64,000 nucleotides of DNA, from assembly GCF_024223415.1 (NCBI RefSeq), contig NZ_CP100500.1, one strand, 5' to 3'. Below, piece after piece: positions 1-24,492 of the stretch. The stretch's first letter is position 1. Each line of letters opens with the position of its first letter. The DNA comes from Escherichia coli (GTDB lineage: Bacteria > Pseudomonadota > Gammaproteobacteria > Enterobacterales > Enterobacteriaceae). Under the pieces are notes generated by a model. The model worked only from the letters and a program-made list of their open reading frames with translations. It ran no database searches and had not been told where the DNA came from. Made by a program: the position numbers and the translations under genes.

Positions 1-5563
<5,563 letters not shown>

Positions 5564-5875: not shown

Positions 5876-5951
5876 TGGCTCCTCTGACTGGACTCGAACC
5901 AGTGACATACGGATTAACAGTCCGCCGTTCTACCGACTGAACTACAGAGGA
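5876..5951 (-). tRNA. asnT: tRNA-Asn (GTT)
   Basis: Reverse complement reads TCCTCTGTAGTTCAGTCGGTAGAACGGCGGACTGTTAATCCG...GAGGAGCCA with cloverleaf and CCA end. Confidence 0.9.
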
Positions 5952-6051: not shown

Positions 6052-6849
6052 TTAATGAACATTCGTCGCCGAAAACGAGTCTGTATCATTAGCGTGATGC
6101 AGTCTCTGCAAAGGATCTTGTTGATAAAATTGGCAGAAACGTTGCCACAATGAAGGGAAACGAGGAGCAAAAAGTTCTGGGGCGCTAAAGAAATATTCAG
6201 AAAGTACGGCAAAACACTCAGCAGGATCACTGGCAGCATAAGCATCGATGCTCGCCGCATTCTCGCCAACTAATTCGATTTCTTCCTGAATGTTGTTCAT
6301 TGCAGCATGAAGATCGTGTTCCCAGCCAGCAACCTCACGCAACGGAATAAAGGGAACTCCGCTGGCGCGATCGCCGTTACGGGTGTCCAGCTTATGAGCG
6401 ACTTCATGAATAATCAGGTTAAAACCAGAAGCATCAAAAGAATCTTGTATATCCAACCAGTTCAAAACGATAGGCCCTTGCTGCCAGCTCTGACCTGACT
6501 GAACAATACGTTGGTTATGCACCAGACCGATATCGTCTTCCCATTCGTCATCGACCACAAATGGCGCAGGATAAATTAAGACTTCATGAAAACCATCCAG
6601 CCATTCCAGTCCTAACTCCAGAACGGGCAGGCAAAATAGAAGTGCTATCCGGCAGCTTCTTAATGAATCCAGTTCAAAGTCCTGTAAAGGAACAAGCCGC
6701 TTTTGCTGTAAAAAACGTTCGGCAAGAGTGACTAATTTGCTTTGTTCCTGTTCCGTCAGACACGTTAAAAGGGGGATCGATAGTGCTTCCTGCCAGGGAA
6801 GGGCAGTTTGATGTGCTGATTCTTGTACTTTCCAGGGCCACTTAATCAT
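6052..6849 (-). CDS. mtfA: Mlc titration factor A (265 aa)
   Basis: ORF 6052..6888; product begins [28 protein letters not shown] at internal Met; length matches MtfA. Confidence 0.85.
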
Positions 6850-6942
6850 CGTTTTGCTCGCAAACTCGTCACTTGAACAAAATTGCACGGACAGGGACTG
6901 TTAAAATGCCAAATTTCCTGGCATCATGGCAACCATCTGAAC

Positions 6943-7032
6943 GGAGAGATGCCGGAGCGGCTGAACGGACCGGTCTCGAAAACCGGAGTAGGGGCAACTC
7001 TACCGGGGGTTCAAATCCCCCTCTCTCCGCCA
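6943..7032 (+). tRNA. serU: tRNA-Ser (CGA)
   Basis: GGAGAGATGCCGGAGCGGCTGAACGGACCGGTCTCGAAAACCGG...CTCTCCGCCA, long variable arm, anticodon CGA. Confidence 0.9.
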
Positions 7033-7586
7033 CTTTATCAATGACTTATCTCCCGACTTACCGCCTTGCTTTTCCTAAACAGAACAATCGTAGAATATTC
7101 TTGAAGGGTTAGATCGTCACTGTTTTCTGTTCGATACTGTGACATTCAGCACTTGATTCGCTATGGATCTGACAGGAAGGTTTCGAGCGAAAATCTGCAG
7201 TTATTCAGTCGTTTTCTTATCGGTCACCATTATTCTTTTAGACATTGATCCTACGAAGCTGCCGCAAAGTTGGTGGTGGGAACTGAAGTTGCGTAGAGAA
7301 GGGGTCAATAATTGAGCCAAAAAAGGAACGCGGCCGTCAGATTAAAGCCGCGGGACAAAGTCCATAATTTCCAAGAGTTGTTGAATTTCCCAGCTTTTTT
7401 GAAAGCCTTTGTATCATACTAACAAGTAAAAAAGGTTTAAATACCAAAATTAACCTATATTTCTGGTTAGCTTTACCATGACAGATGACTTGCTCCTGGA
7501 GACATTGGCGCTGCCAGTCTGTATTGGTGAGTTGTGTATTTATTGTTCGCCGCTTTCTCGGTTTTTTTCTACAGACATAATAAAAA

Positions 7587-7613
7587 AGACACGTCTCAAG
7601 CATGAGCGTGTCT
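7587..7613. terminator. Hairpin (AGACACG..CGTGTCT) flanked by A/T runs, probable bidirectional intrinsic terminator downstream of zinT
   Basis: 7-bp inverted repeat with 13-nt loop, T-rich on both sides; about 90 bp past the zinT stop. Confidence 0.45.
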
Positions 7614-7701
7614 GAGTTTGTTTTATTTATTTGTCTTGGTAAATTATTGTCGTTACTACCAGGCACTGTTCTGTTAAATAATTGAAGTCAGCGCAAAAAA
7701 A

Positions 7702-8352
7702 TCAATGAGACATCATCTCCTCGACCACTTCTTCGCTACTCAACTGATAGGGATAATACGTTGGCCAGTTTTCCATTTCATTCAATAAAGATTGCTGTGA
7801 ATCATTACCCATAAAAATGTGAAAATGAGATGATTTTCGTGGTGCAATTATATGATCGCTAAATTGAATATATTTAGGGGCTTTGCTTTCAGGATCTTTA
7901 CATTCGAATAAGTAACGAACGCCTTTCTTGCCTGATTTATAGGTGAGTATTTTGTATCCCTCGTAATCATATTTACAGGATGTTGTTTCATTATTTCTAT
8001 GGAATTCAACAATGCCGTCCTCAATGCCAATCATCTCGATATCTGTCGCATAACCTTTGTGATAATAATCTTTAATTTCAGCAAATGTTTTAGTTTTATC
8101 TGCATCCGCTTTCTTCTGAAAGACGGGATCAAGTTTGCCACTTTGCAGTAAAGGATAAACGGATTGCCAGACTCCATCCCAGTCACTGAGCGTTCGATTT
8201 TGTACATTGGCATCATCAAAAACACCATTAGCAGCTTTTTGTTCGATCTCTGTTAAAGGTTTGCCGTGTGAGTGATGACCATGCGAAAAGGCAGGAGCGC
8301 TAACAATAAAGACGCCTAAAGCAACAGCCAGTTTATGAAGACGAATCGCCAA
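7702..8352 (-). CDS. zinT: Zinc/cadmium-binding periplasmic protein ZinT (216 aa)
   Basis: [30 protein letters not shown]..., His-rich N-terminus, lipocalin-like fold signature. Confidence 0.9.
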
Positions 8353-8388
8353 AACAGTTTCCTCCAGAGTTATTGTACATGATGTGTT

Positions 8389-8405
8389 ATGTTATATTGT
8401 AACAT
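8389..8405. promoter_or_regulatory. Zur box-like palindrome upstream of zinT
   Basis: ATGTTATATTGTAACAT, imperfect palindrome matching the Zur consensus core (TGTTATA-N-TATAACA), about 40 bp upstream of the zinT start. Confidence 0.55.
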
Positions 8406-8546
8406 ATGGCGAAATGCAATAACTCTTAGAAAACGAGAGCATAGTTTTCTCAGGTGTATTTACCTATCTTATTGAAATAAAATAAATTATGTCGATGATT
8501 TGAGGTTGATGACAAACGAAACATAACCTGATGCGATCTGTGTGGG

Positions 8547-8575
8547 CCGGATAAGGCGCTCGCGCCGCATCCGGC
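8547..8575. repeat. REP (repetitive extragenic palindrome) element
   Basis: GCCGGATAAGGCGCTCGCGCCGCATCCGGC, classic REP palindrome downstream of msrQ. Confidence 0.7.
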
Positions 8576-8608
8576 AGGGATAACGCGTACTTTGTCGGCA
8601 ATATGAAG

Positions 8609-14440: not shown

Positions 14441-14483
14441 TAGTGTTTAGTTTTACAGTAACACGCCGCGGCGCGTTGGCTGA

Positions 14484-15671
14484 TTAGAACTGGTAGACTA
14501 AGCCCACAGCAACGATATCATCGGTAGCGATACCGTTTTCTTTGTAGAAGTCGTCGTCGTTGTCCAGCAGGTTGATTTTGTAATCAACGTAGGTGGACAT
14601 GTTTTTGTTAAAGTAATAGGTCGCACCGACTTCAACGTATTTAACCAGATCTTTGTTTGCGTAGTGATGATTACCCTGGCTATCAAAGTTATCACCATTC
14701 AATCCGCCTAAATCCTTACCTTTAGATTGCAGGTAAGCGATGGACGGGCGCAGACCGAAGTCGAACTGATACTGAGCAACAACTTCAAAGTTTTGGGTTT
14801 TGTTAGCGATGGCATCAGCATCACCGTAACCAGTCATGTTACGGGTTTCAGCATACATAGCTGCTAAGTAAACGTTATTAGCGTCGTATTTAGCACCAAC
14901 GGTCCATGCTTCTGCTGTTTCACCGCCAGCAGTTGCATCGAAGCGATCTCCATAACGAGTGTTATGCAAACCTTTGTGAACCTGATTGTCAGTACGGTCA
15001 GAATTAGAATATGCAGCACCCAGACTTAAACCAAAGTCAAAGTCATAGGAAGTGGACATACCGTAACCGTCGCCGTTCTCTTTAGCAAGTTTACGGCCAT
15101 TCCCGTTACCTGAACCTTCTTGATCAAATAATCCGCTTTTCTCGTTGTTACCTTGATACTGGAGTGCAAAGTTCAGACCATCAACTTGACCAAAGAAACC
15201 ATTGTTACGATAGGTTGCTACGCTGTTAGCACGACCGTTCATGAAGTTGTCGGCACCAGCATAGGTATCGCCACCAAATTCTGGCAGCATATCGGTCCAT
15301 GCTTCGATGTCATATACGACACCGTAGTTACGACCATAGTCGAAAGTACCATTCTGACCAAAGCCTAAACCTGCAAATGCCAGACGCGTTGCGGTATTAC
15401 CTTTGTCGCTTTCAGGACCGTTTGCGCCAATGTTAAATTCCCACTGACCATAACCAGTGAATTGGTCAGCGATCTGAGTTTCACCTTTGAAACCGATACG
15501 GGCATATGACATGTCGCCATCGCTGCCAGCATCATCAGAGAAGTAGTGCAGGCCCGCTACTTTTCCGTACAAATCCAGTTTATTACCATCTTTATTATAG
15601 ACTTCAGCCGCATTTGCTGCGCCAGCAACTAATAACGCCGGGACCAGCATTGCCAGAACTTTTCTTTTCAT
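14484..15671 (-). CDS. yedS: OmpC/OmpF-family outer-membrane porin, apparently intact (395 aa)
   Basis: [38 protein letters not shown]...VGLVYQF, typical porin N-terminus and C-terminal Phe. Confidence 0.85.
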
Positions 15672-15980: not shown

Positions 15981-16005
15981 AAAAAAAAGCCGGCATCATG
16001 CCGGC
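15981..16005 (-). terminator. Hairpin GCCGGCAT-C-ATGCCGGC with 8-nt T-run on the minus strand; possible terminator of an RseX-like sRNA
   Basis: Strong GC stem followed by TTTTTTTT on the minus strand in the yedS-yedR intergenic region, with no protein gene upstream on that strand. Confidence 0.45.
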
Positions 16006-16235
16006 CCAAAAAATATAAACAAGACGATAAAAGGCTAATAACGGGGTTATCATGACACAGAAATCAAAAAAGGTATAATTGAATTCGGTGCTAATATATT
16101 GTTTAGGTGAATTAATAAAACCATTACCATAGATAATAATAAATCTTTATTGCTGTTTTTCCGGTAATTATTGCCATTGCGCAAAAATTATCTATTTGTT
16201 CAAAAAATGATTGAGTCTTGACTGGCTCATCCAAT

Positions 16236-24405: not shown

Positions 24406-24492
24406 AACACATCAGATTTCCTGGTGTAACGAATTTTTTAAGTGCTTCTTGCTTAAGCAAGTTTCATCCCGACCCCCTCAGGGTCGGGATTT
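24406..24492 (+). ncRNA. dsrA: DsrA small regulatory RNA (87 nt)
   Basis: AACACATCAGATTTCCTGGTGTAACGAATTTTTTAAGTGCTTCTTGCTTAAGCAAGTTTCATCCCGACCCCCTCAGGGTCGGGATTT, matches DsrA including the terminator. Confidence 0.95.

Follow-up and report, generated by a model that had tools for sequence, protein, structure and literature searches.

The serU–zinT spacer of Escherichia coli exists in a short form without yodB and a long form with it, of which the short form is most likely ancestral

The spacer between serU and zinT in the window (the whole 64-kb stretch of E. coli DNA that was analyzed here) appears to carry the short allele of an old and common two-allele structural polymorphism. Throughout the text, S denotes the short, yodB-less allele and L denotes the long, yodB-bearing one. 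The gap in the window consists of a 447-bp backbone flank and 222 bp of native DNA downstream of zinT, with the zinT terminator as its main functional element, whereas in the L allele these 222 bp are replaced by an unrelated 995-bp block that contains yodB with its own upstream region. We consider it probable that S is the ancestral state and that yodB of the L allele is an acquired phage-type cargo gene that has been spread by recombination. L would have arisen once, via insertion of or replacement by a self-contained cargo gene ("moron") of the lambdoid prophage type. Homologous recombination of its flanks would then have carried it into different E. coli lineages, and this spread is possibly coupled to the traffic of the neighboring asnT island and serU prophages. 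What we observed directly are the anatomy of the locus, the frequencies of the alleles, the state of the outgroups, the diversity of the flanks (in a small sample) and the prophage surroundings of YodB relatives, and from these we infer which allele is older, that L arose once and that its source was a phage.

Layout of the locus

Between positions 6900 and 7800, the sequence matches that of E. coli WG5 (NZ_CP024090) with 100% identity. The features of the locus, in window coordinates, are as follows.

5876-5951, minus strand: asnT
6052-6888, minus strand: mtfA
6943-7032, plus strand: serU, tRNA-Ser(CGA) (ARAGORN; Rfam tRNA, 57 bits)
7033-7479: backbone spacer common to both haplotypes, 447 bp, 39.8% GC, with no credible gene; 97.5% identical to K-12
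7163-7315: ORF of 50 aa; no Pfam match
7318-7350, minus strand: second, weaker terminator-like hairpin with a CGCGGC/GCCGCG stem and, behind it, a run of U (-17.3 kcal/mol and z = -2.0 when 7300-7370 is folded)
7337-7666, minus strand: ORF of 109 aa with a GTG start; judged spurious; no Pfam match
7478-7615, plus strand: ORF of 45 aa with an ATG start; judged spurious; no Pfam match
7480-7701: block specific to the short haplotype, native region downstream of zinT, 222 bp; no blastn match to K-12
7581-7614, minus strand: predicted zinT intrinsic terminator, an 11-bp stem-loop at 7587-7613 followed by UUUUUU (-20.1 kcal/mol, z = -4.4)
7702-8352, minus strand: zinT, encoding the metal-binding protein ZinT (ORF; 38.6% GC; named zinT in the identical WG5 record)

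Past zinT, the window continues with msrQ, msrP and hiuH. The serU–zinT gap spans 7033-7701 and has the length of 669 bp given in an earlier note on this DNA, its ends being fixed by the end of serU according to ARAGORN and Rfam and by the end of the zinT ORF. The backbone spacer, from window position 7033 onward, also adjoins a partial copy of serU in genomes that carry islands or prophages at this tRNA gene. For the whole window, the Rfam 15 matches comprise five tRNAs and the small RNAs DsrA (24406-24492, plus strand, 102.5 bits) and RseX (15982-16071, minus strand, 97.8 bits), both of which are located where expected.

The gap contains neither yodB nor any other credible gene

The earlier note had given the K-12 gene order as zinT, yodB, serU, which is right (b1973, b1974 and b1975), and had reported that yodB is missing from this place in the window. 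In K-12, yodB is 531 bp long and the zinT–serU gap measures 1442 bp. The absence was borne out by both a tblastn search and ORF/Pfam checks. With the low-complexity filter switched off, K-12 YodB found no YodB-like coding frame anywhere in the 64-kb window: the best match (E = 0.27) was located outside the gap, and inside the gap the search yielded just a 12-residue match with an E-value of 4.3. K-12 YodB is a member of the prokaryotic cytochrome b561 family (PF01292; CybB, YceJ and YodB in E. coli), whereas the window gap holds no member of it.

The sole ORF of at least 60 codons that lies wholly inside the gap, 7337-7666 on the minus strand, had been described as unlike a b561 protein. Its product matches no Pfam family; K-12 YodB, which served as a positive control, matches PF01292 with an E-value of 3e-22. 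The gap ORF extends over the junction of the haplotypes (7479/7480) and through the terminator hairpin. The other two ORFs, of 45 and 50 aa, likewise match no Pfam family, cytochrome b561 included; the former is frameshifted by a 1-bp deletion in the O26 allele and the ATG of the latter is not kept in E. albertii. Rfam 15 at gathering thresholds detects no RNA family within 7033-7701, and PGAP annotates no gene in the gap of any of the five genomes of WG5, UTI89, ST131, O26 and O104. The 669-bp gap is non-coding and holds no credible gene.

These findings, together with a divergence of the S-specific block of up to 7.7% within E. coli, make it very unlikely that a small protein, or a small RNA from the 3' UTR of zinT, is made from the gap and substitutes for the L allele or differs from it functionally. 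Such a product could be imagined as small ORFs are present at 7163-7315, 7478-7615 and 7337-7666, and S alleles carry a canonical hairpin with a U6 tract. Terminators of this type end Hfq-binding 3'-UTR small RNAs.

The two alleles differ by a replacement

In a blastn comparison, window positions 6851-7479 are 97.5% identical to K-12, and positions 7702-8427, which comprise zinT and the DNA upstream of it, are 97.2% identical. The 222 bp in between (7480-7701) have no K-12 counterpart. Their place is taken in K-12 by 995 bp (positions 4027-5021 of the K-12 locus L001), composed of 342 bp, yodB and 122 bp, and this block starts exactly at the zinT stop codon. In other respects, the K-12 locus resembles that of the window closely. 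The order and orientation of genes is the same (hiuH, msrP, msrQ, zinT, then serU, mtfA, asnT), the identity is about 97% in both zinT and the 447 bp beside serU, and the zinT terminator hairpin is also present; the difference is confined to 995 bp with yodB versus 222 bp in the window. Judging by these alignments, S and L do not differ by a clean insertion or deletion: 222 bp have been exchanged for 995 bp of unrelated DNA.

We also considered the possibility that the S block is a diverged subset of the L block and rejected it, as both global and local alignments, controlled with shuffled sequences, showed that the two share the hairpin only. For the segment between the zinT stop codon and the hairpin, the results were as follows.

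S versus L: z = 1.7; 25 of 500 shuffles as good
S versus E. albertii: z = 4.7; 0 of 500 shuffles as good
L versus E. albertii: z = 1.0; 85 of 500 shuffles as good

Hence, a simple insertion fails as an explanation, because the stop-to-hairpin segment of L has no detectable homology to that of either S or E. albertii.

The hairpin of the gap as the zinT terminator

The terminator-like hairpin that had been noticed at 7587-7613 is real, but it is not a stray element of the gap: it is, by all appearances, zinT's own terminator. In the orientation of zinT (minus strand), none of 200 shuffled sequences folds as well, and the hairpin is located about 90 nt past the zinT stop codon. A stable stem-loop, a U tract and a co-oriented gene upstream are all present, which identifies 7587-7613 as a predicted intrinsic (Rho-independent) terminator of zinT. 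In this hairpin (CAGACACGCTCAT...), the letters common to the S and L blocks are GACACGTC...ATGAGCGTGTCTG, with 8 of the roughly 12 tail bases matching. The hairpin is kept in all ten E. coli alleles examined, of both S and L forms, and the E. albertii copy retains the stem via compensatory base changes.

The hairpin of K-12 is just as stable (-21.4 kcal/mol, z = -4.7). However, it is followed by UAUAUUAAUAAG, whereas the hairpin of the window is followed by UUUUUU. As a result, the L allele is left without a U tract, and zinT transcription in L strains may read through into yodB.

The idea that the hairpin is a dispersed repeat or a part of a phage cassette was rejected, since it is present solely downstream of zinT: its sequence has no other copy in the window or in the fetched loci, the prophage yodB cassettes included. 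A scan with promoter and terminator consensus sequences gave counts no better than those of shuffled sequences and missed the bulged zinT hairpin. The second, weaker hairpin belongs to a stretch of about 100 bp (window ~7310-7410) that is found in all E. coli alleles examined and is missing from E. albertii.

Both alleles are common in E. coli

Among 5426 complete E. coli genomes, 2292 contain the 222-bp S block and 3114 the 995-bp L block, in either case nearly always as a single occurrence. Thus, yodB is missing from about 42% of the complete genomes. The S and L counts total 5406, which is consistent with two mutually exclusive alleles and a few further deletions. S is the allele of UTI89, ST131, O26:H11, O104:H4 and WG5, and L that of K-12, O157:H7 and ATCC 8739. 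The earlier note had proposed either a lineage-specific deletion or an insertion in K-12. The direction of insertion is the better supported one, but the event is a replacement and, with 2292 genomes of one kind versus 3114 of the other, it is specific neither to a lineage nor to K-12.

This polymorphism was already known in practice, because a published study used the presence or absence of yodB as a marker of ST410 clones, two of which were told apart as fyuA+ yodB- and fyuA- yodB+ (PMC10786849). The presence or absence of yodB is an ordinary, widespread variant across several lineages. yodB is an accessory and not a core gene of E. coli, and a strain without it carries no lesion. The practical value of this knowledge is small and concerns chiefly annotation and interpretation.

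Outgroups and the polarity of the change

In order to examine outgroups, we used ZinT as a query against one genome per species and analyzed the best 80 zinT loci. The Escherichia outgroups among these were two, E. albertii and Escherichia sp. MOD1-EC7003, and no locus was identified as that of E. fergusonii, E. marmotae or E. ruysiae. In E. albertii the order is zinT, 564-567 bp, serU, mtfA, and there is no yodB. The E. albertii spacer aligns with the S allele over its full length, including the S-specific block and the hairpin, with an overall identity of about 70% to window positions 7430-7800. Within the ~25 bp that adjoin the junction on its left, however, there are four sites at which E. 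albertii has the base of L and not that of S.

Escherichia sp. MOD1-EC7003 has no yodB within 5 kb of zinT. In this genome (L002 5649-6600), the zinT stop codon joins, within about 5 bp, the equivalent of window ~7187-7033, and beyond the joined spacer there is a partial serU 3' end and then a P4-like integrase gene with its island. Only about 160 bp separate zinT from the partial copy of serU here, which is a third, much shorter state of the spacer. The other 76 Enterobacterales zinT loci examined show no yodB within 5 kb of zinT either, and in the other genera examined zinT is not beside msrPQ, serU or yodB. The group serU-mtfA-asnT is kept in Salmonella, Citrobacter and an Escherichia-like genome, each of which has different DNA after serU. 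A search for MtfA relatives yielded one 91%-identical locus (L104), in which shiA/amn and not zinT follows serU, as well as Salmonella and Citrobacter loci without zinT. The zinT–serU adjacency is Escherichia-specific, and the MtfA-relative loci are uninformative with respect to polarity.

The outgroup alignments point to S as the most likely ancestral allele of Escherichia. The choice between insertion and deletion, which the earlier note had left undecided, leans in the alignment of serU–zinT intervals across strains towards the short form being the older one. The opposite polarity, in which the yodB arrangement is ancestral in E. coli and all S genomes, the window's lineage included, have lost yodB, is improbable. 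It would agree with yodB being intact (176 aa) and of low diversity in five out of five L alleles examined, as is fitting for a maintained gene, with the four sites at which E. albertii sides with L, and with a spacer that is prone to deletion, as seen in the ~160-bp state of MOD1-EC7003. However, deletion alone cannot make S, because the 222 bp of S are not contained in L. Furthermore, E. albertii has a homologue of the S block and no yodB, the sampled S flanks are more diverse than the L flanks, and the relatives of YodB occupy mobile contexts.

Diversity of the flanks

The flanks were compared among ten strains, five with S and five with L, with the following pairwise differences.

Within L: 447-bp spacer, 0-0.7%; zinT, 0.2-0.6%
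Within S: 447-bp spacer, up to 2.2%; zinT, up to 2.6%
S versus L: 447-bp spacer, 2.9-4.0%; zinT, 1.7-2.8%

The S/L structure is gone in msrQ and mtfA, where S and L differ by 1-2%. The last 82 nt of zinT contain two differences that are fixed between S and L in these five plus five strains, and the 122 bp downstream of yodB vary by a mean of 4.1% among L alleles. For the ten strains sampled, the pattern of the flanks fits a single origin of L that was followed by its spread by homologous recombination with short hitch-hiking flanks. L is not young throughout, because of the four sites shared with E. albertii left of the junction and the 4.1% variation downstream of yodB, and for the same reasons both alleles appear to be old.

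The intergenic region between zinT and msrQ (window 8353-8608, 256 bp) shows differences of up to 10.9% among strains of E. coli, compared to 1-3% for the flanking genes, and this variation is independent of the S/L split.

A variant of our preferred explanation, in which S is still ancestral in E. coli, is that the whole L block, i.e. the zinT 3' region with its hairpin, yodB and the 122 bp, was not inserted in place but came in by homologous recombination from an unsampled, more distant relative that already had zinT and yodB adjacent to each other. We regard such an import as possible, if doubtful. It would account for the L block starting exactly at the zinT stop codon, and for a zinT 3' UTR in L that is as unlike S as that of E. 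albertii, or more so, and has nevertheless kept the hairpin and 8 of 12 tail bases. The adjoining spacer, too, differs by 3-4% between S and L, which is above the 1-2% found in mtfA and msrQ. On the other hand, the coding sequence of zinT differs between S and L by only 1.7-2.8%, with the two fixed differences in its last 82 nt, and the best 80 zinT loci show no zinT–yodB adjacency save for two contigs identical to E. coli. A donor species with zinT beside yodB was sought among these 80 loci, and none was found.

Prophage context of YodB relatives

The suggested phage source of yodB in the preferred explanation, that of an acquired cargo gene, comes from the surroundings of its relatives. The closest relatives of YodB outside E. 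coli have 72-77% amino acid identity to it. Three relatives are located in prophages (of Citrobacter portucalensis, of Hafnia paralvei and a metagenomic one), where they have a holin/lysozyme/spanin cassette on one side and HNH/terminase genes on the other and are transcribed from the strand opposite to that of the phage late genes. Two Citrobacter relatives are found in islets with homologues of lambda bor or dinI, and a Salmonella relative in an islet with a gene of the Ail/Lom family. In addition, the full length of YodB is covered by a match to the PHROG family phrog_31729 (E = 5e-39).

With regard to context, YodB can be compared with the morons of lambdoid prophages, such as bor and lom: its closest relatives occupy the same slot between lysis and terminase genes. 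The DNA similarity between the K-12 and prophage copies comprises yodB and about 88 bp upstream of it, as expected for a self-contained cassette. In contrast to morons, E. coli yodB has no recognizable prophage remnants around it, and the comparison concerns an allele that is missing from the window. Neither tblastx nor relaxed and sensitive blastn searches against the prophage loci found phage gene fragments in the 342-bp and 569-bp flanks of yodB in K-12. When curated phage genomes were searched with the YodB protein and the 995-bp DNA, the only close match was KU052038, a record of a serU prophage that extends into the chromosomal yodB; the same collection also gave distant b561 genes of Acinetobacter phages. 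The phage-cargo context of the closest YodB relatives is a modest lead on why some strains retain this uncharacterized membrane cytochrome.

The shared upstream region of about 88 bp (K-12 L001 4281-4368) contains a palindrome, TGTGAAAATCACA, just before the ribosome-binding site. This palindrome could be an operator.

serU prophages and the asnT island

A prophage or island is present at serU in O157:H7, ETEC1734, Citrobacter amalonaticus, MOD1-EC7003 and phage SerU-LTIIb, and serU is also the site of an Stx1d prophage (PMC9729726). The serU prophage of Citrobacter amalonaticus (L107 4714-5907) carries an integrase and cI/cro-like genes and is lambdoid. The lambdoid serU prophages of E. coli carry espJ in O157:H7 (L099) and tail-fibre genes in ETEC1734 (L102).

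The window has no second serU 3' end at three or fewer mismatches, no direct repeats at 6900-8400 and no integrase between mtfA and zinT. As far as these features can tell, the serU attachment site of the window strain is unoccupied, and the locus does not qualify as a tRNA island. The serU prophages and islands (the espJ prophage of O157:H7, SerU-LTIIb, Stx1d) adjoin the tRNA gene and the backbone flank that are also found in the window, but the window serU is empty and the yodB polymorphism is situated 447 bp beyond their attachment site. The yodB block is no simple leftover of a serU prophage, because these 447 bp of backbone DNA separate it from the tRNA gene and it is found at their zinT end.

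On the other flank, a tyrosine integrase is located beside asnT in four of the five S-allele strains fetched (loci L095-L098 and L100), whereas WG5 (S) and both K-12 and JNE141411 (L) have yeeJ beside asnT instead. The asnT gene is the site of the high-pathogenicity island and is 1.5 kb from the yodB allele. The island at asnT moves by recombination together with its yeeI/mtfA flank (PMC2606025). The import of the island may thus swap the yodB allele, given this mode of movement, the integrase pattern and the ST410 clones. The S/L state marks the haplotype of a strain in a recombination-prone neighborhood, which comprises the serU prophages and the asnT high-pathogenicity island.

All of these elements can be combined into a more detailed scenario, which we consider rather unlikely as a whole. 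Here, a domesticated lambdoid cargo gene, yodB, would have replaced the spacer just downstream of the zinT terminator in one Escherichia lineage, and four T-to-A changes in the U tract would let zinc-regulated zinT transcription reach yodB. Both alleles would be long-lived across phylogroups, their spacers being 3-4% apart, and they would be reshuffled by the recombination that moves the asnT high-pathogenicity island.

Also of note is an intact gene for an OmpC-family porin next to hchA (window ~14461-15648, minus strand), which is annotated in the identical WG5 record at a position whose K-12 counterpart we take to be the yedS pseudogene.
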